This document shows, piece by piece, positions 36,301 to 64,000 of a stretch of DNA of 64,000 bases. Position numbers and translations under genes: made by a program. The stretch covers positions 76,772 through 140,771 of the forward strand of contig JAQUOD010000002.1 in assembly GCA_028717245.1 (NCBI GenBank). The letters are read 5' to 3'. The stretch is from Candidatus Omnitrophota bacterium. Its GTDB lineage: Bacteria > Omnitrophota > Gorgyraeia > Gygaellales > Profunditerraquicolaceae. The notes below the pieces were generated by a model. That model made no database searches. It saw nothing but the letters and a program-made list of their open reading frames with translations, and was not told the DNA's origin. Every line of letters starts with the position of its first letter. Positions within the stretch are counted from its first letter, which is position 1.

Positions 36301-39300
36301 ACACTCAACACCCAGCGCAATAACCCCGAAGCCATTAACAAAGCCAAGACAGAAATTTCCCGGCTCAAAGACTTAGCCACCACCCTTAAAGAAGGCTTAA
36401 GCTTCATCTCAGCCTTACCTCCTGATGTCCAAACCAGAGGCACCGGCATCATCACTGACCTGAATATCCAGCTCAATACACTCAACACCAAGCGCAATAA
36501 CCCCGAAGCCATTAACAAAGCCAAGACAGAAATCTCCCGGCTCAAAGACTTACTCACTACTTTTAAAGAAGGCATTAGCTTCATCGCTGCCCTGCCTCCC
36601 GATGTCCGACAAACCAGAGGCGCCGGCATCATCACTGACCTGAATATTCAGCTCAACACACTCAACACCAAGCGCAATAACCCCGAAGCCATCAACATAG
36701 CCAGGGAAAAAATCTCCCGGTTAAAAAATTTACTTACTAACCTTAAAGAAGAACTTCGGTCAGGACAAAATGTAGATAAGGCAAAAGAATCTCCAAAGCC
36801 TGCTGCGGCCAAAGAAGGCGAAGCTACTGGTAAGCCTGCCGGAGCTGCAACATCTACTGCTACGGAAGGTGAGCCAGCTGGTACTGTGCCTGGTCAAGGA
36901 GCAGCTACCGGAGCAAATAATGCAGGGACAACCGGAACTACGCAAGGGCCAACAATTAATCAGCAGGCAGCTGCAGACCTTGAAGCCGAGTTATCTGAAA
37001 TCCTAAGGGATTCTTTGGCCGGAGCGCAGCCCCATGCGCCGCCAATTGTCAACATAAAGAAAGGTAATAAGCTGGAGATAATTTTGGGCACTCCTAAACT
37101 TACTAAGCAGCAACAGAAAGAGATAAGGCGTTTAATCATAGACAAGGTAATTCAGATTCAACTTCAGGATGAACAGGGCAGGTTTGTCTCTGTTGCGCCA
37201 GCAAATATTACCCTAAGGTTCGCCAGTATTCATTTCGAGTTTAAACTCAATAAACTTCCTCCTGCAACCTATCAGGCAGTAAAGCTAATATTCGAAGGCT
37301 ATGAATACGTTCACCGGTTCATTCCTCCTCTTTTCATTGGTAAAGCAACTAAAGAGCCCTCTCAACCAGTTGATTCAACCGGAAAATCTACTGAACAGCC
37401 AACAGATACCTCCGATAAGTCAAAGCCAGCGGAAATAAAACAACAAGCTCCATTTATAGCGGAGCTATTTAAGAATATTATCACAGTAGCTATTATATTT
37501 ATTACTTCGCCGCTCCTGTTTCTAGCCCTACTTTTTATAGCTTTAGTAAGCCTAGAGGCATTTAATACAGTTACCGATATAGTTATAGCGATTCCTTGGA
37601 ATATTTTTACAGCACTTGCTAACAAAACTAAACATACACCAAAGCCGCCAAAAGATCCCAGTGATTCCATTTCTTCCTTACAAGACAAACGCTCACCCGA
37701 AGATATCCAGAACTACAGGGCAAGAGTTGCCAAGGCTAGGAAAGAAGGCAGATTATTCAATATCACTCAGGATAATATCATCCAGCAGGCAGCGGATTTA
37801 TTAAGGGGTAAAGTCGTATTATTGCCGGGCGGCTTTGAGACATTGGATATCTCAGATGCCCTCAGCTCAAAACAAATCTTCTGGATTTCTGAGCCAGCGC
37901 GCGGCCCGCCTGATGCCTTTGCCGAAGGTAACGAAATTTATGTATTCTTACACGAAGGCCAATTAACAGCTATTGAGTTAGCTGGTGATTTGCTCCACGA
38001 AGCAGTTGAACTCCACCTTATAAAGAATGGCGTTGAGCCAAAACAAGCCTGCGAATTTGCTACTGAAATACACAAAAACTTTGCTGACCAAAACCAGAAA
38101 CCCCAAGCACCGAATTCAGGAAATAAAGAAAAATTTGATGGAGTGGATATTAGCATAAAGAAGATGCAGGAAGTAGTAAGGGGGGTATTTAGTAGTGGTT
38201 GGGAAATAGGAAGGATTATTGTCAGTGCCTTTATACCTGAGCAGGCAAAGGTTCTAGAAGAAAGTATTGGGCCTAAAGTATTCCCTCAAACCAAGGCAAA
38301 AGCACCTACTTTCATTAAAGGCAACCCTGATCCCGAAGGAGGCAGAGGTAATGGTATGGCTACCATTGCAGCCGGAAGAGCGGCATTCAAGGAGATGATA
38401 GAAGAGATTAAGTTAGCCAGAAGCAAATACAGCCTCTTAGAGCTTATTAGGCATGCTAGTGAGATTACGCATTCTGGCAGTACTATAAATGAAGCCATAG
38501 TAGGTTCCTCTATGGTATTACACAGTGGTGGCGAGGCCAAAAGGAACCACGCCCACGGCCCAGCTGGTGGCGGCAAGATTAACGCCGTATTACCCGGTGG
38601 AAGGTTATATGAGATGTTGAGCGTAATTATGGTTAACTTGGCAGGGATGGCAGGAGATTATCCTTTGTTTGGTAATATCTTTGGTGATGCGCTCATTTGT
38701 TTTGATCCCGACAACATAGGCGGGATGGTAAGAGAAGCGCTCGAGAGAGGTGACTCAGTGTTGCTATTAAGGAAGATATCATATCTTGAAGCTCCCAAAT
38801 ACGGCGTGGCAGTATTAGACAATGAAGGCAGGATAGTGAAGTTTGTGGAGAAGCCAGGTGACCACTTTAAGTTTTCAGGGGCAGACTTAGAGAAACCTGA
38901 GAATCGGAAGAAGTTGCTTGATTATCTTAAGGAGATAGGAGTGCTTATGCGTGGCACCGAGGATAGCAAAGAGCCTTTGGTATTGATGAACCCTGCCTTT
39001 ATGTTGAATGGCCTATACGACATCTTGGCAATGCTTTATCTGGCAGGTTTAATTAATAAAGAAGGCAACCTTGAGATAGATCAGAATGGAAAGATTAACT
39101 TGCAGGCCGATAGTGTGTTAGAAAGAGCCTGCGTCTATAAGATTCCCATTGATACCTATGGTGACTTGATTCCTGCCAAGACTGCGGGCAGGGGGGAATA
39201 TATTGCTGCACGCATAGGTGGTACGGTCAGAAGAATTGCTGATAAAGGTGTAGCAAAAGAAGAGGCAAAGCAGAAAGCGGAGCAATTTTGGTCAGATATA

Positions 39301-42300
39301 CACGCTGCTATGAATGGCGAGGTATTTGCTGAGAAGTTTAGCAGAGGCAGGTTAGTGGGTATTCCCATAGACAGCTACTGGGGCGATACCGGTGCTAAAG
39401 ACACCGAGTTAAATATGCTCTTAGGCGAAGGCAATGAGGGAAACTTGGTAGCGAAAGCCAATGAATTTCCTAGCCGCAGAGACGCCCAGGTGGCGGGTCA
39501 CTTAGGCGAAGGAGGCAGGGTTTATGAATCAGAGGTTTATGCTCAGGGTCAGCAAGAAAGCTTTAAGCTACCTGAACAGGCAGTTGTCTGTGATGCCTAT
39601 TTGGGTGAGGATGTAAGACTCTATATGCAAAACAGGTCAATGATAATAAATGTGGGTGCCAAGAGCGGTATTATCTCAGTCTTTGGTAATTGGAGATTTT
39701 ACTATGACTGGACAAAATTTGATCCTGTTGGAGTAGTGGAATACAATGAAGATAATCCGAACCAAGATGCATGGGCAAGTGAAAGTTTAAGTTTATTTAT
39801 GGTAAGAGCATATGAGCATTATAAGGAAAAAGAACAAATTAATGTGGGTCTGGCTAAATTCTTGGAATTAATATTTGGCAAGGATTTATTACAACCTGAC
39901 AAAGCCAGAATCTATCCTAATCCCGAAAAGATGGAGAAGACTCAGTACGATGAGATTATAGAATGGTTACGTCGTCACGAAATCTCCCCTCCGCCTGAGG
40001 CGTGGTTAAAGGCGCTTGGTTCAGACAAACTGGTTACTCAGGATAAAACAAGAGAAGAAGAACGCATTAATTTAGGTAAAGAAGAATTGGTAGACTGGAT
40101 AGCAGCTGTAGCAAAGACTAATAACTTTGGCCTCGGTAAGATATGGGACATAAATACCTACACTGCTAAGCTATATCCCGAGGTGCCTAGGGGTGAGGTG
40201 GGTAGAGAAGACACAAAGGATAACAGGATAAACTGGCAGGAATTCGATGCCACAATGAGGTGGCTACAGACTCAAATAGAAGAACCTCCTGTGGCTTGGC
40301 TAAGATTATTATTAAACAACAAGCTTCACTCTATGGGAGAAAATTCAGCTCAGGCAGACCAGGAAGCAGTGTTTGAACACCTAATTGGTGGCGGAAAAAA
40401 GAGCGGAAACAATCAGCCGCAAGCCACCGGACCTACCCTGCCTATCGAAGATGCCAAACAAAAAATTGAACAGAAAAATCAAGGTCCCGCCTCCAGCTCT
40501 TCCTTACAGGGTAAGCACTCTTCCCAAGACATCCAGGACTACAGGGCGAGAGTTACTAAGGCCAAATCTGAAGGTAGATTATTCAACATCACTCAGGATA
40601 ACATCGCCCAACAGGCAGCGGATTTATTAAGGGGTAAAGTTGTATTATTGCCGGGCGGCTTAAGGACGCTGGATATCTTAGACGTCCTCGCCGCAAAGCA
40701 AATCTTCTGGATTTCTGAACCGCAGCGCGGCCCGCCTGATGGCTTTGCCGAAGGCAATGAAATTTATCTCTTTCTACATCAGGACGATTTAGCCGCATTA
40801 GAGTTAGCCGCATGTTTACTCCACGAAGTAATTGAGTTGCACCTTATTAAGAATGGCATTGAGCCAAAACAGGCCTGCGCATTTGCTGCTCAAATATGCG
40901 AGAAATTTATAGAAGATGTCCGCAACGCGCGAGGCTCTATAAAATTGCAACCCACTGCCTCCAGCTCCCGCAGAGGCCGCCTCTCCCACGATGACCATTT
41001 AAGGGTTAATGCCGAGATAGAAGTAGCTCAGATGGAATTCCGCGGTTGCCTGCTCTCCGGGACAATTGATGGTTGGCAGATGCCCTTCTGTCAGCAAGAC
41101 CCACAGCTCTACTATACTGCCAGAGAACTCACCCAAGGCTTAGTGGCTAAATTGCCCCAGGTCTTAGGGCAGATAGACATTTACGAAATCCTCAAAGCAG
41201 CTAACGTAATCCTGGTTGTTAACCGTAACCGCTCACCCGGAGATATTGACGATCACATTGGCGAAAAGCGTAACTCTATCTATATTCTTGTTCATTCGGA
41301 AGAAGAATTCCTGAACCTCGCCGCACCGGAATTAGCCGCCATTCTTGCCCACGGGGCAATAGAGCTCGCCACCAAAGAACACGCCTTGAAGAAGGGCATT
41401 GCCTGGGATGATATAGCAGATGAGGCCCATCTAGAGGCGCAAGCCTTCGAAGAAAGCAACCGCGAAATCCTCTCCCATAGATACAACCGCATGTTGATGA
41501 AAATCGATATGCAGGCCGCCTTCAAAGAGGGCTGGCGTATAAAGCGCATCTTCCAGACCGCCTTTAATAAAATCCAGGCTGCTATGTATGCCTCTCAAAT
41601 TAATCCTGAAGATTATCCCAGAGACACTAAAGTTATCCCTGTGGCAGACCCAGAAACTTACAGGAGGGGAGCCAGGGTGCGCGGTAATGGCATTGCTAAT
41701 TTAGGTATCATCAGGGCCTTAGCAGAAGAATTAATTAAAGAGCTAAACTTAGCTCCCGGCACATATAATTTGATAGATTTATTGGGTAACAGCCTAACCG
41801 TCGGTTTACACGGCGGTGGGCAATCCTCTCGTAATCCCAAATATACCCAGATCGGCAAGTTCAATGGTTATCTGCCTATAAAGAGTTTGAATAAAAACCT
41901 CCCCGCCACATTGCAAGAAGAACTCTTGGTTCCCGCTGCAGTATTAAGCCAGATTTATCCTGAGAATATGCCGGCCTACATCAATACTTATGGCGATGCC
42001 CTGATTACCTTTAATCCCGGTATGGTTAAGCAAATTATTAGTTCTAGTCCTGAGATGGTCAACGGGATGATGGTCTTTGTAAGAAAAGTTCCCGCTAGAG
42101 AGTCGCCTTGCTGGGGAACAGCTAGCGTAGCGTCTAATCTACGCATAGTGCAATTCATAGAAAAACCTTTGGGAGATACAGGGGAGGTAGTCAACGGCAT
42201 TATCAGAGTAAATAAAGAAAAGTTTGTCATAGACGAAGATTTAGATAAAGCCAAAGATATTTTAAGAAATAAATATAAGGTATTGGTTGACGACGAATAC

Positions 42301-45300
42301 ATCCTCATGAATACTGCCTTTGCTGTCTTGGGGCCGCTAGCCTTAGTGCGCTGGGCGATCTTAGCCGGCATTGATGTAGACATAGATGGCAAATTTACCG
42401 TTATCGAACAAGGCAAAGTCCCCTATAACAAAAATAGTTTCTATGATAAAGCCCTAACTTATGGCGCAAATGTGGACACCTTCGGTGACCTGGTGCCTCC
42501 TATGAGCGAGAACGTAAACATACTTGAGTTTATCTTTAGAGGCAACGTAAAGCAGATAGAAGATGCCAAGAAGAAATTCAATGCCTCAAGCCTCTCCATA
42601 TTAGAAGATATCCAAACCAGGCTACATGGCCTGCGCGAAGGCTTCAATGGAAAGACAATCTCCTTGAATGAGTTAGGCCAGGAACTTGAAAAGTTAGCTA
42701 AATCCCTGGAAAAGAGATTTACAGAGGCACAGGAGGTAAACGATATTCAGGCGTTAGATACCTGTTTATCTAATGTAACCCAGATTTTAATGCGCCAGAT
42801 ATTGGCTGAAGTCTTACGCCATCCGGGCGCAGGCTCTAATCTTTGGGCAATTCCCATAGAAGGCGACTGGCTGGATACAGGTAGGACCATAGAAGAATCT
42901 CAGATTATCTTAGGCCAGGGCCAGGCGAATAAGGAGTTAGGTTTAATCTTTGGTTTTGAGCAATCGATTGCGTCTAAGTCTAACGTTACAAGCCATAGCT
43001 ACGCCAGTATCATTGAAGCCGGCCCCGATTCACACATTGCTCCGGACTCCATACAGATTGCCTCATACCTTAACGGAAGAATTCAATTAGACAGCGAATC
43101 TCAGGCCCACATGGTAAATTGGAGAGGAGACTTGCATCTTTATCCGCAGGTAGTAATGTCTGAGGCGCCCATATTACATAAAGATAAAGGTGAAGATAGA
43201 AGTAAAGATAAAAGCTGGATAGTGCATTTACTCTGGAGCCTGCAGGATGGAGAAACTAACAAAATCACTACCCATATGAACCGCTCCTTAGAAGAGTGGC
43301 TTAGCGCCTTGGGTATTGATATGAATAAGATTTGGGCCCCTGGCGCAGCACATATGTTAACCACTGCCAGAATTTTCCCGGGCCTTAGCCAGCAGGTCTT
43401 GGAACAAGGAAAGCCAATTGACAACCTTGATAGAGAACTCTATGAGTCCATGTATGAAATCTGGGGTTTCTTACAAGGCCATACTTCTCCTGCACCTGAA
43501 GCCTGGAAGAAAGCCTTAGAACAAGAGCGCCTATTCTCTATGACTGATGTCTATAACGAACCCGCTACTGAACTATTGCAGCAGAGGAGACAGAAGTTAA
43601 TAGAGGAATTAAAACAAAAAATTGACCAAGAAAATTCAGGCATCGCCTCCAGCTCAAGCCAGATACCCTTAGGCTGGCTCTATGATGCAATAGAGGATGA
43701 ATACTACAACCCCGCCAATCCCACTATCCGAGGCAAAATAGTAAATGGCGAATTTGGAGTATATGGGGGAGGCCTGCCTTCACAGGATTGGCTGCATATC
43801 CGCCAGAACGCCAAAGAAGGATTTAAGCTTCCTACCAGCGTATATCTGTCAATATATGACCAAGAGCAGAAGAACGCTTTTAAAGAATACTTTAAGGTCT
43901 ATAACTGGCCTAACAATACAATATTCGATGAAGGTACCATTGTCATTGATGAAAAGGTGCCGGCTGAGGTAAAGCAAAGACTGCCAAAAATAGTAGTAAA
44001 AGGTAATGGCTTAGGCATCTTAAGCGTGATCAGGGCAGATATCAATAGATTGGCAAAAGAATGGAATCTTGCGGATGGAGATTACTCATTAGAAACTCTC
44101 CTTAGGCAACATAAGCCGCACAGCGTGGTAGTAACCGCAGGCGGTCAGGCCCAGCGTAATCCTAAATACACCCAGATAGGAAAGATTTTAGCCACCTTGC
44201 CTATTGAAAGTAAATCTAAGGGTCAGCCTTCCTATATTTTGGAGTCGCTCTTAGATATCTCTATCAACATCGAGCACAACTACCAGGACAGCTTTATGTT
44301 TGCCGTAATCTACGGCGATTCCCTGATCACCTTTAACCCTGAGCAGATGCAGGAATACTTCGCCCAGCATTCAGCGGTAAAAGAAGGCCTCTCCTGCCTA
44401 TTCTTGAAGATGGGCTATAAAGAATGTGAAAGATACGGCTTCGGAAAATTAGCAGAAGGCAGTCTAAAAGTAGAGGTATTCATAGAAAAATATGACGACT
44501 TCCAGAAAAGATACAGCCTGCAAAAAGCCAGTACCCCCGATGAGATGAAAGAGCAGCTTAAAGGAAAGGGAGCTTTGGTGGATGGCGAATGCATCTTAAT
44601 GAATCCTGCCTTCTCTGTCATAGGAATCAAGGCCTTCTTAGGTTATACGCAGCTGGCAGGGATTGTTGATCAGCAGGGGACGATGACGATTGAATCAGGT
44701 GAAGTGAAATACACAACGGATAATTATTTAGATAAAGTATTAAACGGAAGGGAAGGTGAAAGTGTAGACATAGATAATTTTGGCAAGATTGTCCCCAGCT
44801 TTGCTACCCAAACCCAGGACACCCCTATTACCAGAATACTTAAAGACTGCCAGGGCCTGCTTTACGCTGTCCCTGTGGAAGGGGTATGGTTCGATACAGG
44901 AGGGATAAAACAGGAGCGGGATATCTCCTTGCAGGATGCTGCCTATAGCGAAATCATCAGCACTTATGGATTAAGGCCTTCAATTAACAGCGCATTAACC
45001 GTTGCTGGACAAAGAATATCCAAGGATTATAGCTACAATTGCCGCATTGAAGCCGAAAGAGGAAACATCCATCCTAAGAGCCTGCAGATTAACAGCGTAG
45101 TAAGGGCTTCTGAGATTATCTTAGAAGAAGACTCACAGCTTTATAACGTGCTCTTAGAGAATATACCAAGCTTAAGATTATATAAAGATTACATCTTCAT
45201 TGAGGCAGCAGCAAAGATAAATGACCGGGATTTTATCGTGCCGATTGTCTGGAACCAAGCCACTGATGACGTCAAGAAAGATTCCTTTGCCGGAAAGAAG

Positions 45301-54300: not shown

Positions 54301-57300
54301 AACGGCTTTAAGCCCATTGTCGGCAAGACCACCCTTTATGGAGATATGATTCAAAATATTGGCACTCAGATTGATGAAGGCTTAAGGGTTATGCCTGAAG
54401 CAGACAGAGGCAGCACCATCACTAACCTCACCGAATTCACCACCGCTATCTATCAGGCAAAGCTCTTCCATGAGTTCTCTAGCTTAATGAATACCATTAA
54501 GAATCTCCCCCTTAAGGTTGCGGTTGACTTTGGCGGCGGTTCAGCCACCTGGTATGTGGACTTTGCCAAACAGATGTTAGGCGATAAATTAGTCAAGGTC
54601 TTCCGCAGCGAATCTGACCCCACCTGCACCAAGGGCCTGCCTGACCCATCCAGAGCAGATGATAAGTGCGTAGGGCATCCTAAGTCAGCAGGCGATGAGA
54701 GTATCCTGGAGTGGTCCAAGAAAAACCCGGATGTCATCATCTTCCATTTTGACCTGGATACAGACCGCTGCGGCATTACCATTGCCGGCACCCTTTATAA
54801 AGGAGACATCTTATTTTATCCTGTCATTGACTATGCCTTAACCCTCTCAGCCTACAAAGAACACCATAAGGAGTTTTATTTTGATGCCAGGATGAGCCCG
54901 GCTATCGCTGAGCTAATCCAGAACCTTGGCGGCATTGCCAAGATACACCCTAAAGGACATTCCAAGGTTAAGGCCACTGTTGAGAAATTCCTCCAGGGTC
55001 TTGCTCAAAGCTTAGGCTTTGCTTCAGCAGAAGAACTCGTCTCCAAGCTCGGCATTAAGAACCACCAGATGGAATACAGCCTGCATCCTTTTATCACAAT
55101 TGAGAACGGCGCCTGCATTGACGATGCCTTAAGATTTATGTTTAGCTGGTTGGATGCCTTTATCCAGATAAGGCAAAAATACAACCAGCCAAACTGGCTC
55201 TTGGCGGATTATCTTGATTACCTTAAAGACAATAAGGTCATCAGCAACTGGTATTCGCTTAACGAACAGCGCACCCCTATGCAGGAGGAATATAAGAAAG
55301 ATGTGATGAACGAAATGAGGGACGCAGTCACTAAAGCATTTAAAGGAAACAATGATTTTGAATATGTCCTCTGGCAGGACTTTAAAGTAGCCGCCAAGCC
55401 CTTTACCTTAGTGGATATTGAAGGCGTCTATTACTTCCTTACCCCCAAAGGCATCTTCTACTGGGGCTGGTCAAATACCTCCAGCAAAATCACCTTTGGC
55501 GCGCACTCGCGAAGCCAGGAGGATTTACGCGCCTTAGTTGAGATGATGCTGTCTGTTTACCTTAATATAAGGAATGCTAAAACCAATCTTAAGCCCGATT
55601 CAGCGCATATCATACCCCAAGAGACCGCTGCCTTAATGGCGCTATTTAATCAAAAGGACTTGGTAAAGTTGGAAGGGGATATTCTTAATAGATATCCTTC
55701 AGTAGATGTGGCATTGGAGGAGTTGAGGATAAAGTCTGGGTTTAGTAATCTTATATTGGAAACTATAGAAGGACAATTGAGGAGGACATCCGAGATGTTA
55801 CAAATATCCGAGAGCGTAGCGCAAGCGGCAATACTTAAGAGCATAAACAAAACTATGCTCCTGAATGATTTCGCAGAATCAGTGGGTATATCTACAAAGC
55901 AGGCAATTGAGAATATGGTTAAAGCGGGCCTTGCTATAGCTAAAGGCAAAGATGACTATGATTTGACCGGCGATTTCCATAATGAGGATAAATTAAAGGA
56001 ATTTATTAAAATTCAGGTTGCAACATCAAGCAACCCCAAGATGGTAGACCTTACCTTTATTAGAATAGAAAGGATTATCCTCAATTCTATTAATGTTAAT
56101 GAGTTTATAAAGGGGTTAGCAGGGGATAAAGAGCAGAGCGCAGTAATAGATGTCTTAAGCAAGAATAAATTATTCGCCACATTGGTCGCGGTGTGGAAAT
56201 TAAACCGCGCCTTTAAATCAGAAGCCAAAGATGCAATAGGGCTAAAAGTAGAGGATATAGTTGATATTAAAACTACTGAGTTTTATCGCGAGAACGGCGT
56301 AGAAGTAAGTTTCAGCTTGCCTTCTGGAACTTCCGTTAAGAATAAAGAAGTTTTAGCAACGCTCTTAGAATACCAGGCAGCGCTCATGCAGGATTTGGCC
56401 AAGGGCCAATTTAATTATCGCGGCACAGGCACCAGGCAAACCGTAGAACAATTCTTTAACGATTACTTTATGCCAGAGTGGTATGGAGTAATACATAAAT
56501 TTATCCGCCAGCAATTTGATGAACAGGGAGAACCTTTAGAAGCAATCATCAGCAACGGCATCGGCGCCAATGACCAGTTTATGTGGTCGTTGGTTGAGAT
56601 GTATAACCGTAACAAGCCTGCTGGCGCGCCTACGTGGTACCACATAGTTACAGCAAGAGATTTGGTTAAATTACAACATTTGAACCCGGGAAGGACCCTT
56701 TGCATGGAAATTTCCCGTTCCGGAAGCACTTGGGAAGGGATAGAGGCAGCTATCCGCCTGCTCGCCAAGGGCTTTAAGAAAAGAATCACCCTTGCTAACG
56801 GCGGCGCGCTTGCCGCTATAGCTAAGGCAGCCGGTGATTCTGCGTTGATAATAGGTATGAGCCCGGATATCGGCGGAAGGAACATGCACCGTAAAACTAC
56901 GATTTATTATACCGCGCAAACAATAATGGGCATGTTCTTGCCCGAAATGGATTCTAAGGTATTTGCCGCGCTGCATCATAAATTTGATGCGGCTAATGAT
57001 TTTGCTAACAAAGGCAGCATAGCAGTAAGCTCCGGTAAATTCCTGCACGCAGCTATGAAACTGCTGGGCGTTGAACATATCAGCCTTATAACCAATACCG
57101 AGCAGCTGGCATTAATCGGCTCAGAATGGAGCCAGTATGTTATGGAAGGCAGCAATAAAGAAGACATTATCTCCTTAGGCGCGCACAACCTTATCACTGA
57201 ACCCGAAAGCGTCCTGGCCAATTTAGCAAAGAGCCCCGCAGGAAAGATAACCATTGCCATGGCGCTTCTGGATAAAGCCTCAAATAACTATACAAGAGAT

Positions 57301-60300
57301 TTAGCCAGGGTTGAAGAACTAAAAGCGCGTATGCCGCTTATGCTTTTTGTGATTGATTCCAGCGCTTCAGCATTTAAGGGCTTAGACCCGAAACTCCAGG
57401 CGCCATTTGATATATTGTGGACAGATTTTATTACGGTTCTTACTACGTTCTTACGAGTGGATGCGAATTCCAATCCCAATGTTAAAGTAGTGCGCACACT
57501 CACTGCCTCTTATGTAGCAAAATGGAAAGAAACCAAAGAGAGGTATACTAATGATCTCATTGGGAAAAAAGCTACTGACCTTCTTCTAAGTTTTGGTTAT
57601 CCCGGAAAAGAGGAAGAGCAATCAATCGGAACAGTAGAGAAACAAAAGGCCGTAAATAGCGTAGAGGAAGCAAAAGAAAAAGGCCGTAACTTAGCTAGGT
57701 TCTTAGCCAATAAAGGAATGCTTACCGGCCGTAACCGCTTGAACATTTTCTTCGGGGCGGAGGGCCTGGTCAATCTCGCTGTCGGTTTAAGGAATTATAC
57801 CTATAGCACAGATTTATTAACGAAGTGCGGCTGGATTACTGAGACTGGAATCTATCCTATCCGCGCGCATAAAGGCCATGAGGCAACCTTAGCATATTCC
57901 ACAGATCCTAATAGGCCGCTTTTGGCAAATAGGAGTATTGATATATTCTTAAATGTAAGGCGCCTGGGCGATGAGGCTTACTATAATGAGCCTTTCCAGG
58001 ATGTAGCCAGCCAATATACAAATGTTAACGGCGCTAATATACACCAGACCAATGATTCCATGACTTTCCCTAACATCCAGCGCACGGCGCAAGTCTCTCC
58101 GACCATCCTCTTTGAATTTAATGAAACTACCCCAGATGTTCAAAATAAGATAGAGGCCTTTTATAAAGCATTTGTGGATGAGCTGGCAAAAGGGAGTCTT
58201 GGCGATACGGTTGATGGACCTAAATTACCTGATAACGGCGGCGCCAATCTTTCTTCGTCCAAGACGCCGTTAGCAACCAAAGATGCATGGGAAAAGATCG
58301 GAGCGCAGAAGAGGGCCGGGGTTTTAGTGTCGCTATTTTTCGTATATTCTAAAAAAAGTGCGGGCATTGGAGACTTTAGAGACAAAAGGTTAGTGATAGA
58401 TTGGGCTGTTTTGACCGGAAATTCAATACTTCAGGGCCTACCGCTAAATGATATGGGCGCTAATTTTTGTCCTTACGATTCCGACAGTTCTTTCGCCTTA
58501 GATCCCGTATACACATCATTAGAAATGTTATCTACCGGAGAACAGATCAAGGCTAAGATAGAAAAAATAAGGGAGATGTTTCCTGTTGGTAAGCCTTATG
58601 TGGATTATGGAATAAAGAAAGCAAAGATCCAGCTCCTTTGGGAGATTTACACGGGAAATCCTAACCTTGACTCTTCGGAATTCAGAAAATATAGAGAAGA
58701 AAATTCTTATTGGATGGATGATTTCGCGCTCTTTAAAGTCCTGAAAGATTTAGAAGGCGGGAAACCCTGGTATGAATGGGAAGAGGGATATAAAAACCAC
58801 GATAAAGAGGCCTTAGAAAGTCTTCGCAGAGAACACACAAAAGAAATAACTTTTCATATGTGGGTTCAATGGCAGCTGTATGAGCAGCTTAAAGAGGCTA
58901 AAAAATATGCCGAATCCAGAGAAATTTTGCTAAAGGGCGACCTGCCCCTTTTGGTATCTAAGGATAGCGCAGATGTCTGGGCGCATCCGGAATTCTTTAA
59001 ATTGGAGTTTGCCAGCGGGGCGCCTATGGATATGTATTCTGCTTTAGGACAGCGTTGGGGCATGCCTACATATAACTGGGAAACTATTAAAGCCGATAAT
59101 TTTGGATATTTGAAAGAAAAGCTAAAGTATGCCCAAAATTTCTATCACATTTTAAGGATAGACCATGTCGTAGGTTTATTCCGGATTTGGAGCATACCTT
59201 ATAATGAGCCTTTGGAGAATCAAGGCTTAAATGGATTCTTTGACCCTTGTGAAGAGAATAAATGGGAAGGGCACGGCAAAGAGATATTATCCGCGATGCT
59301 TGAGAGCATAGAGATGCTCCTTTGCGCCGAAGATTTAGGGGTTATCCCCAAGGTATGCACTGACACCTTAAAGGAATTCGGTATCCCGGGTAATGATGTC
59401 CAGCGTTGGGCGAAAGACTGGAAAGGAACACGCAATTTCTTGATGCCTGAGGATTACCGTGAACTTTCTGTGGCAATGTTATCTACGCACGACACGACTA
59501 ACTGGCCGGCATGGTGGGAAAATGAAGCCGGGACTGTTGATGAAAACCTTTTTATCAGAAAGTGCGCGCAGCAGGGAATAGATTATAGCAGCGTAAAAGA
59601 GAAATTATTTGATTTAGGCCTCTCAAGGCATGCAAGATTACGCTGGTTAAATAGCGTTACCTCTAGCGATATCTTGGCCGATATTCTAGGAAAAAGAAAA
59701 GAAGAAATAGCTGATTTTATAGAGATGTATGAAAACACATATCAGGAAAAAGAGAAACTCTGGGAAATCCTAAAGCTTATTGGGCCGATGAGAGAAGAAT
59801 GCGATAGTGATATTCTTAGGGCGGCATTGAAACTCAGTTTAGATTCTAATGCAAGATTCTGCGTAAATACTATTATTGATTACCTGTATTTAGCTTCCGA
59901 TATCTTTAAAGGCGACCCATATCAATATCGGATTAATACTCCGGGCACGGTCAGCGAAAAGAACTGGTCTCTTGTTATGCCCATTCCTCTTGAAGAGCTG
60001 TTAGAGCATGGGATAAATAAAGATATACGTAAGATGGTTGAATCTTCGGGAAGGCGCGCGCCTCAATCAATAAAGGAAGACAATTTAGGCCTTACCTTAA
60101 TTATAAATATACACGATCTAGGAGCAGCAAACGTAGATGAAGCAAGGGGGGGGCTATATATTGATGGTGAAAAAATTGTGACTGGCCTCGAAGACCTGAT
60201 AGGCCTCTTTAAAGAAATTGATTTCCCGCTGACCTTTTATCTTTGGGGTTTATTGAAGACCTCTATTGTGTCTCATTTAGTGCACGGACTTGATTACCCG

Positions 60301-63300
60301 GAGGCGACGAAAGAGCAAGATATTAAAGCATATATAGAAGAGCGCAGGGATTATTTTGGCATAGGCAATGAGATAGAAATAATTGAGGCCAAAGCAATTG
60401 GCGGGGATAACCGCCTTTACCTGCAAATGAAAGTGAACGGAAGAACGCTTTCTATGGCTATCGGGTATCCTACTAAACATGCCACCTATAATTATGCAGG
60501 AAAAGAGATTAAACATAGTGAGCGATTTGGTAATTTCTTCTCTCTTGCTGATTATTCTATCACGCCATATTTAAAGGATCGGGTTGAAGCATTGAGAGGG
60601 TTGATAAAGAAAGCGCAAGGTACTAAAAAGAAGGTTATCGTGGATTTTATTCCTTGGTTATCTCCTGAGGTGCTCACTGACGAAAATTATCATTATTTTA
60701 AACATAAGAAGATAGTCTCGGATAAGACCGACGAGGAGATTTTGAAAGAGAAAGAATGCTTCGGCGTAGTATTCTATCCGCAAGACAATGGAAGAGTTTT
60801 TGTATATTGCAGAACAGACTCACAAGATCAGCTTCGCCCTAATTTAAGCGCTAAAACCGAAGATGGCAGATATTATTGGGAAGAATACTATTTAAATTAC
60901 CTGAAATATTTTATAGATGAGTTTGACGTTGATGGGTTCAGGGTGGATATGGCAGAAGAGTTGTGCGACGAAAGCGGCGATTATTCTCTCCTCAAAAGAG
61001 CGCTCTTTAACGCGATAAACTATGCCTCAGAAAAGAATGGAAGAAAGCTGTATTTTGTGCTCGAGGCCTATGCTAATGTTCACCGCAATATTTTCAGGCC
61101 CTGGAACAAAGAATTAAGTTATTATGCGATTAAGACTTATTATAAGGATGTGATGGATAACATTATTAAAGCTGATACCTTGGGGTTACAAGGTTCTTTA
61201 AACTGGGTGATTAATAACCTAGAGGCAGCCCGCACAGAGGCGGTTTTAATTACTCAGTATGACGATGAGAGCCTCGTAGACTCTGTACCAGACGAAGACA
61301 AAAGGCAACAAGTGATAAAAGAGTATATTGCTCTTGCTAAAGGAGGCTACAATGTCATTTTTTATCTTAACTACCTGGCAGGATTTGCCGGTTGCCTGAC
61401 CCCTGCGGCTGGAGGAATGCGCAAGCAATCTGAAGAAGGGCATACATATTATACACATAAGTTTGCTACTCAAGAAGAATTCAAAACAGTAATGGAACTT
61501 TCTTTGCCTGAAATAATCAAGGGTTCTTATTTCTATAAGCTTATGAAAGAATTACCCGAAGTAGAACGTGTAGAGCTGGAAGGGGGAAGATTAATTATAC
61601 ATTATTCAAATACTTTTAGTTGGATTAGGAGAAACGTGCCTGAGCTTGTGGATAAAGTCATTGTCACTCTTTCAATGGAAGGAAACATCCCTGAGTTCGA
61701 AGGATTTGACGCGCAGGATGCCAATACTAAAGGCGGTATGGGCGCGCACTATGGAGATAAGCTGGAAGGCCTCTTTAAATTGGGTATTAAGGCATATGGC
61801 ATCCAGCCGGGATACTCAAAGATGATGAAGGCAGGAAGATTCGATGATGTTGATTACAGCGGGATTATAAATAAAGGTATCCTACAAAGGGTTTATGATT
61901 CTGAAAACAAGCCGCTTGTAATTCCGGTATATGCCTGGGATAATAACGACCCCAATAATGCATATAATAATCCTTTAATCAATGTTGAGGCTTGGAAAGT
62001 CATCCGCGCAGGAACCGTTGATTTCATCTTAAAGTCGCCTATCTTTGATATCCTCTACACGGATGATAGGGTTTGTCGGTTTGCGCAGGAGATAGTTTTT
62101 GGAAAGGCGGCATTCCAGCTTCTTAAGAGGCTAAATATCATTCCTGATATATTACATTTAAATGAAGCGCATACGGTGGTTGCTGCGGCGCTATTAAGAG
62201 CTGATGACTCAACTTTCAGGAAGACAGCAATTGTGTACACTAATCATACGATTGTGCCTGCTGGCCTTGAAGTTTTCTATTCAGGGCAACTAAAGACTGA
62301 TGTAGACCGCATGATGTATCAGATAGGTATTCCCGGAGAAAGGCATAATGAATTCCGTTCGAGATTCTTAAGCTCAGCCGACGTGGTTAATTTCTGCTAT
62401 GCTGCCACCTACTTTGCGGATGTAATAAACGGTGTCAGTAATGAGCATGCCCGGGCGACCGAAAAATTATTTAAAGCTATGTACGGAAAAGGATTTGATG
62501 TGAGTGTTGTGGGCGTTCTTAACGGTTCTGGGAATAGCTGGAAGAATGATAAGTTACTTTCCATCGAGAAGAAAGGAATGACTCCTGCAGAAGAAGAACT
62601 TTGGAACATTCACGAAGAAGGAAAGGCACTTGCCTATACAGAGGTTGAGGCGAGAACCGGCGTTAAACTTGATCCGCGCAAACCAGCACTTTGGGCGGTC
62701 AGAAGGATTGTGGATTATAAGAGCCAATATCCGATGTTAAGATTCTTAGTCGGGCTTATTTGCGCTGAGCGAGAGGCTCGCTTTACAAGAGATGAGCTCA
62801 AGAATTTAATGTTTAAATTTACCCCTGATTTGCAGATAGACTATAACAGGGAATTAACAGAAGCTGTGCTCGATTATATTTTCCAAGATAGAGAATACGT
62901 AAACGGTTTGGGGATGCAGGTTGTGGTAGGCGGGCCTGAGTATAAGTATATGAGATTCTGGGTTGAAGAGTTTAAGAGATGGTCCGAGATACCCGAGCTT
63001 AAGGGCAGGTTTATTTATGTTCCTGACTCTGACACCCGGCTCCTTAAGATGCAGGCGATCGGAGCGGATATATGTATTAATATGCCTAGGCCCCTTGAAG
63101 AAGCCTGCGGTACTTCTGACCAGAGAACAGGCATAAATGGAGGAGTGAACATTGCTATAAGAGGGGCAGGGCCTGTTGAATGGATAACGGATTATAATGA
63201 AGAGACGCGTGAAGGGAGCGGATTCCTGCTTGATTCATACACTAAACTTTCTTCTGAAGGTTTGGTTGCGGATAATGCGCTATTTTACCGTAAAGCCCCT

Positions 63301-64000
63301 GCTGATATTCTGCAGAAGCTTGAGATAGCTGCAAGAATATTCTATACCGATAAGGCTCAATGGAAGTATCTGATGCATAATTCATATCTGGCAAGCGCAA
63401 AGGTTACAGCCATAGCGATGGAACAAAGATACGCTAGAGATGTGTATAGGCTTGCGCTTAAAAATAGGGAAGATGTATTAAGGAGCCAGAATCCCGCTAA
63501 TAAACCTGATAGCACCTACCCCGGCACCGAAAAAACAGAAGACGTCGGCCTTCCTAATGCTGAGGTAACAGTTGCTTTGGAAGGCAAGAAAGTGAAAGAT
63601 TGGAAGTTATCTATGCCGGAAGGTATTGAGTCAGAATTAGAAGGAAGAATCAAAGCTAAGGCAGATGGGCTTCATAGAGAGTTAATCGCCTGGCTTGCCC
63701 AAACAGAGCATGCCCCACCTTCGGGAATCTATAAATTTCTTCTTTCCTACATAGTTACCTCTCCAGAAAAAGACTTACCTCCTGATGAAACCCTCCTTGG
63801 CAAAGTAGAAATAGCCGATAAAATAATCCACATTGCCTACGCTACCTTAAATAAACCGCAAGCTGTTATTATCTTTGACTTCTTCCGCCACGAAATCCTC
63901 GGCCATATTGCCAAGAATACAGAAGATGAAGGGCTCGCCTGCCAGCCGAGTGAGATTTATTTTAGTACCCATCCGGATGAGCTCTCAAGATTTTTAGAGG
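1..64000 (+). CDS. Internal fragment of one giant multidomain protein gene (frame +1; partial at both ends; more than 21,333 codons in the window)
   Basis: Frame +1 has no stop codon in any region read codon-by-codon (most of 1-37.7 kb, plus spot checks to 64 kb). The ORF track has no complete frame +1 ORF and only ORFs of 208 aa or less in other frames. Recognisable protein domains follow each other in the same frame. Confidence 0.9.
337..552 (+). other. TPR-like helical repeat region ([17 protein letters not shown]...[19 protein letters not shown])
   Basis: Spacing of Ala, Tyr and Gly residues resembles a TPR repeat. Confidence 0.3.
1366..1545 (+). other. Two predicted transmembrane helices ([17 protein letters not shown] ... 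[13 protein letters not shown]) followed by a basic [10 protein letters not shown] stretch
   Basis: Hydrophobic stretches in frame +1. Confidence 0.5.
5299..5780 (+). other. GGDEF diguanylate-cyclase domain with intact GGEEF motif ([10 protein letters not shown]; GGEEF at 5527-5541)
   Basis: Motifs [29 protein letters not shown] and RYGGEEF are all present. Confidence 0.8.
5836..6200 (+). other. Class I SAM-dependent methyltransferase domain ([10 protein letters not shown] motif I; GIDKD; FDLVII; LKVDGRV)
   Basis: Canonical methyltransferase motifs I, post-I, II and III in order. Confidence 0.7.
6760..7010 (+). repeat. Membrane module copy 1 ([13 protein letters not shown]-...[10 protein letters not shown]); its paralog is at 9010-9250
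   Basis: A nucleotide block of about 30 nt, ttcgtccaacatccttagcagtcctatttt, is shared with 9018. The minus-strand track ORFs 6843-7130 and 8988-9380 share the peptide AFFKAGGLR. Confidence 0.65.
7081..7910 (+). other. M28-family zinc aminopeptidase-like domain (SAHFDA ... DDNASG ... NAEEFDGLG ... FHTTKD)
   Basis: The His/Asp, Asp, Glu-Glu and His metal-ligand pattern of M28 is present in order. Confidence 0.6.
8100..8420 (+). other. Zincin-like metallopeptidase motif region ([17 protein letters not shown]; HELGH at 8323-8337)
   Basis: HExxH motif in frame +1. Confidence 0.4.
9010..9250 (+). repeat. Membrane module copy 2, ending in the lipobox-like stretch [22 protein letters not shown]
   Basis: Same evidence as copy 1. 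Confidence 0.65.
10800..11215 (+). other. CBM-like beta-sandwich module copy 1 ([13 protein letters not shown]...[22 protein letters not shown])
   Basis: Paralog of the module at 11545-11905 ([13 protein letters not shown]...[22 protein letters not shown]). Confidence 0.4.
11260..11530 (+). other. Junction cassette J1: TM plus KKRNSK anchor, conserved leader [27 protein letters not shown], then RR-containing signal-peptide-like segment ending VRA/QS
   Basis: Aligns with J2 (14890-15190) and J3 (20290-20515). Confidence 0.5.
11545..11905 (+). other. CBM-like beta-sandwich module copy 2
   Basis: Paralog of the module at 10800-11215. Confidence 0.4.
11915..12195 (+). other. FN3-like (purple-acid-phosphatase N-terminal type) domain copy 1 ([22 protein letters not shown]...[14 protein letters not shown])
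   Basis: About 88% nucleotide identity to copy 2 at 13240-13500. Confidence 0.65.
12199..12336 (+). repeat. Perfect (Thr-Pro)x23 dipeptide linker
   Basis: The acg/act/aca cct/ccg/cca hexamer repeats. The antisense track ORF 12120-12428 reads (GV)n. Confidence 0.95.
12337..13220 (+). other. Clan GH-A TIM-barrel glycoside hydrolase domain #1 (GINTVRTY; acid/base WELGNEYN with Glu at 12664-12666; nucleophile FSEGGTDS with Glu at 12931-12933; [10 protein letters not shown])
   Basis: The GH-A beta4 NE(Y) and beta7 SE(G)G motifs are present. Family (GH5-like or GH72-like) not resolved. Confidence 0.7.
13240..13500 (+). other. FN3-like domain copy 2
   Basis: Paralog of the domain at 11915-12195. 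Confidence 0.65.
13561..14455 (+). other. Three tandem cadherin-like / He_PIG-type beta-sandwich repeats of about 95 aa (PPVI..IP...dL.DYV.D...NATLTG.ILTISA...W.G.T...ITV.D)
   Basis: Three tandem units. A Gly8 tract at 13513-13560 precedes them. Confidence 0.55.
14515..14775 (+). other. Cluster of 3-4 transmembrane helices ([27 protein letters not shown] ... [26 protein letters not shown])
   Basis: Hydrophobic stretches in frame +1. Confidence 0.5.
14890..15190 (+). other. Junction cassette J2: HExxH block ([25 protein letters not shown]; HERTH at 14896-14910), leader [27 protein letters not shown], then SRR plus hydrophobic segment ending VEA/KE
   Basis: Aligns with J1 and J3. The HExxH block recurs at 17473-17550. 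Confidence 0.5.
15190..15960 (+). other. S8 subtilisin-like serine peptidase domain (Asp in VFVLDSG, His in KVHGSIV, Asn in NMSFGN, Ser in GTSMAAP)
   Basis: The Asp/His/Ser triad motifs occur in canonical order. Confidence 0.75.
16020..16890 (+). other. WD40 / PD40-like beta-propeller repeats ([62 protein letters not shown])
   Basis: Six or more repeated blades. Confidence 0.6.
16950..17270 (+). other. Transmembrane cluster; contains an exact 18-nt direct duplication tcttggtgggaggggcta (SWWEGL x2)
   Basis: Direct sequence and hydrophobicity. Confidence 0.5.
17610..17920 (+). other. Transmembrane cluster ([22 protein letters not shown] ... [20 protein letters not shown])
   Basis: Hydrophobic stretches in frame +1. 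Confidence 0.45.
18200..19800 (+). other. Divergent SecA-like / SF2 DEAD-type motor ATPase module (Walker-A-like [24 protein letters not shown]...[14 protein letters not shown]; NBD2-like [24 protein letters not shown]...[22 protein letters not shown]; motif-VI-like [10 protein letters not shown])
   Basis: Residue-by-residue correspondence to the SecA blocks [31 protein letters not shown] and AGR...VTIATNMAGRGTDI / QLRGRSGRQG. The Walker B segment appears degenerate. Confidence 0.4.
20290..20515 (+). other. Junction cassette J3: leader [21 protein letters not shown], then hydrophobic segment [15 protein letters not shown] ending VYA/QS
   Basis: Aligns with J1 and J2; lies immediately upstream of GH-A domain #2. 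Confidence 0.45.
20520..21450 (+). other. Clan GH-A glycoside hydrolase domain #2 (GINTIRTY; [15 protein letters not shown] with Glu at 20857-20859; [12 protein letters not shown] with Glu at 21130-21132; [12 protein letters not shown])
   Basis: Paralog of domains #1 and #3. Confidence 0.7.
22489..22698 (+). repeat. 5 tandem in-frame repeats of 42 nt (14 aa: (I/M)[13 protein letters not shown])
   Basis: Direct sequence. The antisense track ORF 22479-22724 shows the repeated peptide [10 protein letters not shown]. Confidence 0.85.
23335..24600 (+). repeat. About 7 tandem repeats of about 180 nt (60 aa; consensus [21 protein letters not shown]....[12 protein letters not shown]....FYT); unrecognised family
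   Basis: Direct translation. Confidence 0.7.
27190..28090 (+). other. Clan GH-A glycoside hydrolase domain #3 (GINTVRTY; [14 protein letters not shown] with Glu at 27469-27471; [11 protein letters not shown] with Glu at 27790-27792; [10 protein letters not shown])
   Basis: Paralog of #1 and #2. The 17-mer ataaatacagtaaggac is shared with 12454. Confidence 0.65.
31370..32270 (+). other. Polytopic membrane block 1 (about 10 predicted TM helices)
   Basis: Successive hydrophobic stretches of 18-24 aa in frame +1. Confidence 0.55.
33560..34660 (+). other. Polytopic membrane block 2 (about 8 predicted TM helices)
   Basis: Read codon-by-codon across 33.5-34.7 kb; hydrophobic helices separated by short loops. 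Confidence 0.55.
35200..36750 (+). repeat. About 10 tandem alpha-helical repeats of about 60 aa (LP..VR.....VI.DLN.QL..LNTERN.D..KAIK..I..LKDIL); the last three units (36235-36750) are nearly identical in nucleotide sequence
   Basis: Direct translation. The antisense track ORF 36219-36635 contains two copies of the same peptide. Confidence 0.75.
37680..38100 (+). repeat. Conserved module A copy 1 ([37 protein letters not shown]...[25 protein letters not shown]...[21 protein letters not shown]); function unknown
   Basis: About 93% nucleotide identity to copy 2 at 40510-40920. The frame-2 track ORFs 37616-37804 and 40385-40630 give paralogous peptides. Confidence 0.7.
38330..39700 (+). other. 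NTP_transferase-like (sugar-1-phosphate nucleotidylyltransferase fold) module B1 ([19 protein letters not shown]; SYWGDTG)
   Basis: The YGV..D..G.I..F.EKP and W.D.G motifs are typical of RmlA/GlgC/GalU-type pyrophosphorylases. Confidence 0.5.
40510..40920 (+). repeat. Module A copy 2 (second half of a tandem segmental duplication of about 2.8 kb)
   Basis: Same evidence as copy 1. Confidence 0.7.
41640..43000 (+). other. NTP_transferase-like module B2 ([17 protein letters not shown]...LPI; [10 protein letters not shown]; FIEKP; GDWLDTG)
   Basis: Has the GG.G.R...K..LPI, EKP and W.DTG motifs; paralog of B1 and B3. Confidence 0.55.
43930..45100 (+). other. NTP_transferase-like module B3 ([24 protein letters not shown]; [10 protein letters not shown]; GVWFDTGG)
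   Basis: Paralog of B1 and B2. Followed by the conserved tail IPLGW(L/V)YD...YYNPANP(T/S)[18 protein letters not shown], which occurs at 43660-43790 and again at 45607-45726. Confidence 0.55.
45766..46440 (+). other. Glycerophosphodiester-phosphodiesterase (GDPD)-like TIM-barrel region (IIAHGM..NIEQ...[15 protein letters not shown])
   Basis: Partial GDPD motif set. The second catalytic His is not evident, so the region may be degenerate. Confidence 0.3.
49852..51420 (+). other. GT-B glycosyltransferase, GT5 glycogen/starch-synthase-like domain ([20 protein letters not shown]; [10 protein letters not shown]; [10 protein letters not shown])
   Basis: Matches the GlgA-type N-terminal KTGGLADV..ALP motif and the C-terminal GRL..QKG and PS.FEP.G motifs. 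Confidence 0.65.
51650..52100 (+). other. Possible HxGH-class (cytidylyltransferase/NadD-like) Rossmann nucleotidyltransferase ([17 protein letters not shown])
   Basis: G.F.G.F.P.H..H-like N-terminal motif with T/A substitutions. Confidence 0.25.
53975..55350 (+). other. Alpha-D-phosphohexomutase (PGM/PMM)-like domain (DVRGK...; active-site loop [18 protein letters not shown]; metal loop [12 protein letters not shown])
   Basis: TRSHVE sits in place of TASHNP (the Ser is retained) and DLDTDR in place of DGDGDR. Confidence 0.55.
56690..57300 (+). other. SIS-domain, phosphoglucose-isomerase-like region ([17 protein letters not shown]; SPDIGGRNM)
   Basis: Resembles the PGI blocks ISKSGTT.ET and GGRYS. 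Confidence 0.3.
58300..59750 (+). other. GH77 4-alpha-glucanotransferase (amylomaltase/MalQ-like) domain (SAGIGDFRD; [17 protein letters not shown]; [21 protein letters not shown]; [12 protein letters not shown]; CAEDLGVIP; [12 protein letters not shown])
   Basis: All GH77 signature blocks are present, including the catalytic Asp (RIDH), Glu (AEDLG) and Asp (THD). Confidence 0.8.
60620..61480 (+). other. GH13-like (alpha-amylase family) catalytic region ([13 protein letters not shown] resembles conserved region II with the nucleophile Asp)
   Basis: Region II motif at 60934-60969; regions I and III are not clearly canonical. Confidence 0.35.
61880..63420 (+). other. GT35 alpha-glucan phosphorylase-like domain ([18 protein letters not shown]; [15 protein letters not shown]; [26 protein letters not shown])
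   Basis: Matches the short archaeal/bacterial GT35 blocks YTNHTPVPAGHD and EASGTS.MK. The PLP-binding Lys position aligns with Arg. Confidence 0.6.

Follow-up and report, generated by a model that had tools for sequence, protein, structure and literature searches.

Alpha-glucan enzyme modules strung along one giant reading frame of a Candidatus Omnitrophota bacterium

Can most of an alpha-glucan pathway be carried by one bacterial polypeptide, and if so, on which side of the membrane would it work? This question is raised by a stretch of 64,000 nucleotides from a Candidatus Omnitrophota bacterium (assembly GCA_028717245.1, contig JAQUOD010000002.1, positions 76,772 to 140,771 of the forward strand; the whole stretch is called the window here). 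A first inspection of the letters alone, referred to below as the sequence-only reading, had recognised glycogen-type enzyme domains fused in a single frame over about 26 kb. A six-frame stop count of the whole window supported this fusion and showed it to be larger than claimed: frame +1 contains 0 stops across nucleotides (nt) 1-63999, which correspond to 21,333 codons, and exits the window at both ends, whereas the remaining five frames contain 761-1,972 stops each. Stop codons between the domains, which had been named in advance as the observation that would speak against a fusion, are missing from all 21,333 codons. The window thus covers an inner part of one giant gene, whose product has >21,333 amino acids (aa). 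The sequence-only reading had missed that the frame spans the entire window, of which the fusion is the C-terminal 40%, and that the class to which the gene belongs has already been published. Throughout, aa numbers refer to the frame +1 translation of the window (nt = 3*aa-2).

Codon usage of the individual modules fell in the range seen for randomly placed stretches of equal length along the gene, with mild deviations only in nucleotidyltransferase-like (NTase-like) module 1 and in the phosphohexomutase module, and this homogeneity together with the lack of stops makes a chimeric assembly unlikely. No ordinary genes were found in the window. Internal translation starts for the modules were also considered and were rejected: a strong Shine-Dalgarno sequence accompanies only 8 of the 350 in-frame ATGs, and the starts of the GH77 and GT5 modules are not among these eight. 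The open reading frame (ORF) listing, in which ORFs running off the ends were not included, gave one unrelated antisense ORF of 208 aa. Antisense open frames inside the giant gene are located at 11,106-11,732 (-, 208 codons) and 52,239-52,892 (-, 218 codons) and are most likely due to chance.

Within this frame, at least eight module types are strung over the ~8,800 aa that follow the last hydrophobic hairpin (Table 1), and the continuous frame and the identities of the modules bear out a fused alpha-glucan enzyme set in one polypeptide. We consider it probable, with a probability of roughly 0.6, that the gene encodes a membrane-tethered cytoplasmic multi-enzyme protein which carries most of the alpha-glucan pathway and whose modules were recruited from the single-gene enzymes of the lineage.

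Table 1. Features located in the window, with coordinates and the scores or motifs by which they were recognised
Feature	Nucleotides	Amino acids	Strand	Evidence
Single stop-free frame	1..63999		+	Stop count; open at both window ends
Last hydrophobic hairpin before glucan block	37447..37620	12,483-12,540	+	Hydropathy
~146-aa repeat, copy 1	37678..38115	12,560-12,705	+	Motif IFWISE.xRGPPD...LLHE..E; 73-78% identity to copy 2
NTase-like module 1	38263..39501	12,755-13,167	+	PF00483 20.8 bits vs cutoff 21.2
~146-aa repeat, copy 2	40,504-40,941	13,502-13,647	+	hmmsearch i-E 8e-90
~146-aa repeat, divergent third copy	41,110-41,463	13,704-13,821	+	hmmsearch i-E 7e-11
NTase-like module 2, fucose-pyrophosphorylase type	41596..43395	13,866-14,465	+	PF07959 69.3 bits vs cutoff 34
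NTase-like module 3	43945..45012	14,649-15,004	+	PF00483 16.4 bits vs cutoff 21.2
GDPD-like barrel segment	45772..46260	~15,258-15,420	+	Pfam 23.3 vs cutoff 23.6; PDB 2pz0 E 7e-6
GT5+GT1 glycogen-synthase-like GT-B module	49798..51450	16,600-17,150	+	PF08323 E 2e-12; PF00534 E 1e-8
Alpha-D-phosphohexomutase (PGM/PMM)	53968..55590	17,990-18,530	+	PF02878 33 bits, above cutoff; PF02879 21.8, below cutoff; PgmG E 8e-18
PGI/SIS-like motifs	56548..56886	GIGAN 18,853; ISRSGSTWE 18,904; DIGGRNM 18,955	+	Motif order and spacing
Complete GH77 4-alpha-glucanotransferase	58309..60054	19,437-20,018	+	PF02446 E 1e-114, 384 bits (cutoff 25); TIGR00217 228 bits (cutoff 205.65)
Divergent GH13-like (clan GH-H) TIM-barrel module	60070..61620	20,024-20,540	+	GFRVDMA at aa 20,312
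GT35/GT5-like GT-B module without the pyridoxal phosphate lysine	61621..63510	20,541-21,170	+	TIGR02094 E 2e-29, 102.6 bits vs cutoff 191.7

For the GH77 amylomaltase, the presence of all three catalytic residues was confirmed. Both family profiles score above their cutoffs, and the catalytic Asp/Glu/Asp, which lie in the motifs RIDH, AEDLG and THD, align to those of the Thermus amylomaltase, whose numbering we take to be D293/E340/D395. The module is 62-68% identical to stand-alone 4-alpha-glucanotransferases of ~610 aa, of which those with a named source are labelled Candidatus Omnitrophota, and a scan of GTDB genomes gave no match above 67% identity. Stand-alone Omnitrophota MalQ proteins (e.g., P0050 from GCA_041643025.1) share this identity over the full ~590 aa, have the same triad and, compared with the Thermus enzyme, the same lineage-specific C-terminal extension, whereas the embedded module lies in-frame and lacks separate start and stop codons. 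Identity between the module and stand-alone Omnitrophota MalQ was 65.3% and that of the stand-alone enzymes among themselves 66.8%, and 115 of the 119 columns that are invariant among 40 stand-alone enzymes are kept. The embedded GH77 is shown to be intact and under normal constraint, with a conservation indistinguishable from that of the free enzyme. Each of the 80 species genomes with the best matches has malQ as a separate gene of 580-664 codons, with housekeeping genes around it. Several contigs (L008, L011, L024, L031, L061 and others) carry an Omnitrophota-type malQ (58-66%) under Planctomycetales, Patescibacteria or Margulisiibacteriota labels, which is probably binning or labelling noise.

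Directly C-terminal, about 5 residues past GH77, begins a module of ~515 aa with a probable GH13-like fold and GH13-like motifs, so that the GFRVDMA string, which had been noted as a GH13-like region II, turned out to lie inside a real module. Weak matches to TreZ and GlgX are centred on this string, and a search of 5.8 billion proteins yielded only two homologues, of which one is encoded by a stand-alone gene (621 aa). R-x-D, LE and N[YF]D are invariant and arranged as the GH13 regions II-IV. The assignment of the GFRVDMA module to GH13 is moderately supported. The stand-alone gene (P0122) lies on a related 445-kb contig (L003, ENA ERZ1286166 contig_3842, 10,001-19,322), where it overlaps a 586-aa PF08323 gene; a 1,758-aa fusion of GlgB (full branching enzyme) and phosphoglycerate kinase (PGK) comes next, and on the upstream side there is a ROK-domain protein of 1,172 aa. 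Collinearity of this contig with the window was considered and rejected, as only the GH13-like module matches and the PF08323 gene is not homologous to the GT35-like module.

The module that follows had been proposed as a GT35 phosphorylase-like domain, of which the GT-B homology holds but not the phosphorylase signature. With alpha-glucan family phosphorylases (GT35; TIGR02094; PDB 9l6i) it shares GT-B fold homology over ~630 aa and the phosphate-site motifs TNHT and RR...YK, but its N-terminal half scores as PF08323 (GT5), and in the alignment to 9l6i it reads EACGTSDQR where the phosphorylase has EASGTSGEK, which places an Arg at the Lys that forms the Schiff base with pyridoxal phosphate (PLP). 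Neither this Lys nor a profile score above the family cutoff was found, and PF00343 gave only E 0.14. An exhaustive search of 1.84 billion representatives yielded 150 relatives, the longest of them with 7,858 aa, in which the position of the module varied; 91 of them at E < 1e-30 range in length from stand-alone proteins of ~630 aa to 7,695 aa. Arg is the motif-end residue in 104 of 119 motif instances, whereas the canonical Lys occurs in nine, mostly in the most distant matches, and the change from Lys to Arg is for this reason a conserved trait of a distinct clade and not local decay. Judged by its residues, this clade is predicted to be unable to bind PLP in the canonical way and is no canonical phosphorylase. 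Source annotations of its members read 'glycogen/starch synthase', and a stand-alone gene of 634 aa (P0129) has a housekeeping context. The module in the window is 64% identical to the copy in the Omnitrophota protein P0279 (NCBI MDD5027417.1, 3,653 aa), which spans an 11-kb contig in the order HAD, TreT-like glycosyltransferase (GT), GT35-like module, partial GH77-like module and dual-specificity phosphatase. This phosphatase recalls the glucan phosphatases of the laforin/SEX4 type.

The GT5+GT1 module, which is glycogen-synthase-like, aligns to 6gne and 2qzs. It has the PF08323+PF00534 architecture, and the C-domain motifs GRLATQKG (R300/K305 of RL..QKG) and PSLFEPAG (E377 of PS.FEP.G) are kept as proposed. 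The expected KTGGLADV-type N-terminus is replaced by SQVGGIADV, with Gln in place of the Lys, and all relatives have Q or M at this position (PES[QM]VGGI). The NCBIfam glgA model TIGR02095 reached 164 bits and stayed under its cutoff of 328. The only close relatives (48-60% identity) are 'partial' contig-spanning proteins of Omnitrophota and one gene of 642 aa; when metagenome contigs were scanned with a profile of this module, only two 5-kb loci were retrieved.

The phosphohexomutase-like domain with its DLDTDR loop was confirmed by a PF02878 score above cutoff and by alignment to 1k35 and 3uw2 (PMM/PGM of P. aeruginosa), in which the TRSH phosphoserine and the DLDTDR metal loop are kept. With the remnants of the sugar loop (MEYSLH) and of the phosphate loop (SNT), both read off the sequence, phosphoserine, metal, sugar and phosphate loops are all represented; the Arg of domain 4 is not conserved, and PGM domains III and IV were not detected by Pfam. 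C-terminal to it, the SIS/PGI-like region has three motifs in canonical order, ~52 aa apart, and none of 2,000 shuffles matched them, although this test is generous, as the patterns were written after the sequence had been seen. No significant Pfam, NCBIfam or PDB match was obtained for this stretch (best profile E 0.08 to PGI/PMI families), a PDB sequence search of aa 18,330-19,433 gave no match, and a single-sequence AF2 model of the region was unusable (pLDDT 35). The PGI/SIS identity is a candidate call at the level of motifs only.

At the N-terminal side of the glucan block, three NTP_transferase-like modules had been predicted, and three are present with the corresponding motifs, but the literal GG.G.R is absent and PF00483 remains at or below its cutoff. 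The modules are mutual paralogues with 23-32% identity (32% between modules 3 and 2), and GG-x-[AS]-x-RN...GK....LP, GD.LI.F.P, F.EK and W.DTG are invariant in all three; module 2 carries FIEKP and WLDTG, and module 3 carries WFDTG. On module 2, PF00483 scores 13.9 bits vs a cutoff of 21.2, and with PF07959 above cutoff and the motifs in place, the features of sugar-1-phosphate nucleotidyltransferases were found. A glgC-type identity did not hold, as the GlgC equivalog TIGR02091 reached 21.6 bits vs a cutoff of 424.9 and the resemblance is to fucose pyrophosphorylase instead. No match was obtained in a PDB sequence search of aa 12,522-15,000.

The GDPD-like barrel is supported by its match to 2pz0 but has lost two catalytic residues and lies just under the Pfam cutoff. 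It has AHG for HRG and a Trp at the second catalytic His and keeps E-x-D (as E-I-D), so the full residue set of a glycerophosphodiester phosphodiesterase (H-R-G, E-x-D, second His) was not found in it. The N-terminal flank of this segment is duplicated at aa 14,403-14,686.

Nearest homologues of four modules are all labelled Omnitrophota, and besides malQ, stand-alone versions exist for the GT35-like, GH13-like and GT5 modules, in agreement with the statement that these enzymes normally belong to separate genes. Other long Omnitrophota proteins contain a cassette of GT35-like module, alpha-amylase and GT5/GT1, and the order of the modules was different in every relative retrieved. As the same modules recur in varied order, they can be regarded as a recurrent shuffled cassette of long Omnitrophota proteins.

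Membrane segments were counted by hydropathy only (Kyte-Doolittle, 19-aa window, threshold 1.8). Between aa 458 and 12,521, 35 hydrophobic segments were found, most of them paired as hairpins with a distance of 20-90 aa. When the threshold was raised to 2.0, no hydrophobic segment was seen beyond aa 12,540 up to the window end; at >=1.8, two appear in the glucan block, both inside the folds of NTase-like module 2 and GT5, and no convincing transmembrane (TM) or signal-like segment was found in the ~8,800 aa of the block. The polypeptide does carry TM segments, as had been proposed, but they all lie upstream of the 37680-63420 region for which they were described. The predicted TM count upstream of the glucan block is odd, and its parity equals that of the block containing GGDEF and the SAM methyltransferase; this count and the TM-free block favour the cytoplasmic face. 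A signal-like N-terminus was found in 0 of 120 stand-alone GH77 proteins and in none of P0129 (GT35-like), P0122 (GH13-like) and P0124 (GT5). Nucleotidyltransferases, PGM, PGI and glycosyltransferases that use nucleoside diphosphate (NDP) sugars need nucleoside triphosphates (NTPs) and sugar phosphates, which are unavailable outside the cell. Because of this chemistry, the stand-alone relatives without signal peptides and the TM parity, a tethered cytoplasmic enzyme set is favoured among the two functions that had been suggested, and surface display on prey glucan is not.

In the upstream part (aa 1-12,521), Pfam identified TPR, GGDEF (E 3e-48), a SAM methyltransferase, peptidase M28, PAP_N/fn3, a GH2 TIM barrel, peptidase S8 and a WD40 propeller, whereas ~4,400 aa after WD40 (nt 24,001-37,400) had zero Pfam matches. 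Many distinct Pfam families tile the chain, and none dominates by copy number. A perfect (Thr-Pro)23 linker at 12,199-12,336 (aa 4,067-4,112) separates the PAP_N/fn3 and GH2 modules, and shorter TPTPTP runs occur at aa 3,586, 7,170 and 7,254. Three GH2_C-like segments (aa 4,201-4,419, 6,932-7,161 and 9,144-9,381) have a mutual identity of 35-43%, and two arrays of degenerate tandem repeats lie at aa 7,764-8,197 and 11,626-12,274. The ~146-aa repeat at the beginning of the glucan block is a local duplication. In P0123, an unrelated partial protein from Omnitrophota, it also stands immediately before the GT5 module, but a role as universal inter-module adaptor was rejected, as there are only three copies in the window.

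If the tethered cytoplasmic reading is correct, the ~8,800-aa soluble block after the last hairpin would lie on the cytoplasmic face. The three NDP-sugar pyrophosphorylase-like modules might provide an activated sugar donor, and the GT5/GT1 synthase-like module together with the PLP-lysine-less GT35-like GT-B module might extend or turn over the chain. Phosphohexomutase and the probable PGI would link the block to hexose phosphates, whereas the GH77 amylomaltase and the GH13-like barrel could be responsible for chain transfer and remodelling. All these modules may derive from single-gene enzymes of the same lineage and may have been exchanged between its long proteins by shuffling. That the block is cytoplasmic, that each module is catalytically active and that glycogen is the substrate are inferences.

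Several observations weigh against this reading. The NTase-like modules are not GlgC-like, and the donor sugar may therefore not be glucose. No branching enzyme was seen within the 64-kb window. The topology comes from a crude hydropathy count, and published TM predictors disagree on such proteins. Catalytic positions deviate in several modules, with Lys changed to Gln in GT5 and to Arg in the GT35-like module, Arg and His lost in GDPD and the domain-4 Arg lost in PGM, and for this reason some modules may not run the textbook reaction.

An alternative that we regard as possible but rather unlikely is that the gene product is a polyprotein: after a single round of translation, its own S8 or M28 modules or other proteases would split it into glycogen enzymes of ordinary size, with the fusion as a device for co-expression and stoichiometry. 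Such processing is compatible with a cytoplasmic location and differs from the tethered enzyme string in the final state only. It is supported by the S8 and M28 peptidase modules in the same frame, although these are >7,000 aa distant, and by module boundaries that match the full lengths of stand-alone enzymes. Cleavage was also proposed by West-Roberts et al. (10.1101/2023.11.21.568195). The very short junction between GH77 and the GH13-like module carries the tetrapeptide RAPQ, which occurs twice in 21,333 aa (0.13 expected), at 49,771-49,782 before GT5 and at 60,055-60,066 between GH77 and the GH13-like module, both times at a module N-terminus. However, these are two instances that were noticed post hoc, and the other junctions share no common cleavage motif.

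A far-reaching interpretation, which we consider doubtful, is that the giant gene has absorbed housekeeping glycogen genes, including a full-length MalQ and the PLP-lysine-less GT35/GT5 hybrid, so that the modules are the only copies and form a covalent glycogen metabolon. If this were true, the hybrid may be the actual glucan synthase or phosphorylase of Omnitrophota, and RAPQ-type junctions could mark processing sites.

Improbable, and less likely than a cytoplasmic enzyme string, is surface display, in which an exported block would attack glucans of prey or of the surroundings, as the sequence-only reading had suggested; West-Roberts et al. also considered such a location for sugar-phosphate enzymes. 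Omnitrophota giants have been implicated in predation, some predictors place such domains outside (10.1101/2023.11.21.568195), and modules of secreted type (S8, M28, GH2, fn3 and the (TP)23 linker) are found upstream in the same frame. Against export stand the dependence of the nucleotidyltransferases, PGM, PGI and NDP-sugar glycosyltransferases on intracellular NTPs and sugar phosphates, the stand-alone relatives without signal peptides, the 8,800 aa without a TM or signal-like segment, and a TM parity that equals that of the GTP- and SAM-dependent modules.

Also less likely than the cytoplasmic enzyme string, and in our view quite improbable, is a non-catalytic scaffold, in which activity would be retained by a few modules only, such as GH77, whereas most would serve, as domesticated pseudo-enzymes, to bind glucan or other partners. 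The non-canonical residues at key positions of GT5, the GT35-like and GDPD-like modules and PGM domain 4 could be read in this way, but the substitutions are family-wide (EACGTSDQR in 104/119; PES[QM]VGGI in every GT5 relative), they recur in the stand-alone P0129 and P0124, and all other signature residues are kept. Altered but selected active sites are suggested by substitutions that are shared by whole families and by stand-alone proteins. An artefact, in which misassembly, chimerism or sequencing error erased the stops between adjacent genes, is extremely unlikely and again less likely than the tethered string, since stops are lacking in this frame and amount to hundreds in each other frame, codon usage is uniform along the gene, the modules adjoin without intergenic-like spacers, and comparable contig-spanning ORFs are present in many independent assemblies, closed long-read genomes among them.

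The analysis resolves, down to single residues, a sugar-metabolism block for which surveys of giant proteins in Omnitrophota give Pfam counts only. Of what is new in it, most useful are the conserved GT35-like clade without the PLP lysine, the embedded MalQ of housekeeping grade and the rare GH13-like module. Family-wide changes at textbook catalytic lysines were found in the GT5 subfamily as well as in the GT35-like clade, and stretches without a family match turned out to contain a GH13-like family that is rare and a cryptic region resembling PGI. The results bear on the question of whether the giants work as uncut strings of enzymes in the cytoplasm, are polyproteins that undergo processing, or act as machines at the cell surface, and they name modules and junctions at which this can be tested.

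Giant proteins of Omnitrophota, the 'Archaeovorins', were described by West-Roberts et al. in 2023 (bioRxiv 10.1101/2023.11.21.568195), with the type protein from Velamenicoccus archaeovorus. In these proteins, GT5 glycogen-synthase-like plus GT1 is the second most common domain type, and PGM and glucose-phosphate-isomerase domains occur too. The same study acknowledges that the location of such domains is uncertain and that TM predictors disagree, and places PGM/PGI-type domains outside. A second preprint (10.64898/2026.06.07.730766) reported 916 giant proteins and defined a 'multi-enzyme metabolic cluster' class, almost all of it membrane-anchored; its sugar-metabolism Pfam module comprises PF08323 in 153 proteins, PF00534 in 127 and PGM domains in 64-88. 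Glycogen synthesis has been inferred for Omnitrophota metagenome-assembled genomes in the literature. GH77, GT35-like, GH13-like and nucleotidyltransferase modules are mentioned in the main text of neither preprint, and no copy of the exact window protein was found in the collections searched.

The gene in the window is a well-preserved member of this published class of Omnitrophota giant multi-enzyme proteins and adds new detail to it. It has an ORF of >=10,000 aa, many Pfam families of which none dominates, and TM helices (by hydropathy) scattered along the chain. With the 'multi-enzyme metabolic cluster' class it shares an ORF >10 kaa (thousand amino acids), many tiled Pfams, scattered TM helices, PF08323, PF00534 and PGM, and a methyltransferase and a peptidase upstream. 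It differs by its GH77, GT35-like, GH13-like and fucose-pyrophosphorylase-type modules, which are absent from the main text of that preprint. With the Archaeovorins it has in common GT5-like plus GT1, PGM, putative glucose-phosphate-isomerase-type, methyltransferase, GH and S8 peptidase domains, many TM segments and the Omnitrophota origin. Of the other Archaeovorin features, the window, an internal segment of a gene that ends outside it, showed no HEAT repeats and no NUDIX, C39 peptidase or SecA-like domain. The Archaeovorin study leans towards extracellular degradation of prey cell walls, whereas the evidence from the window favours a cytoplasmic glucan block. Smaller glycogen-enzyme fusions, such as GlgX/MalQ (NCBIfam PRK14510) and the GlgB-PGK protein of L003, likewise join enzymes that act on the same polymer covalently, but they combine two activities in 1-2 kaa, whereas the window holds at least eight module types in a TM-anchored chain of >21 kaa.

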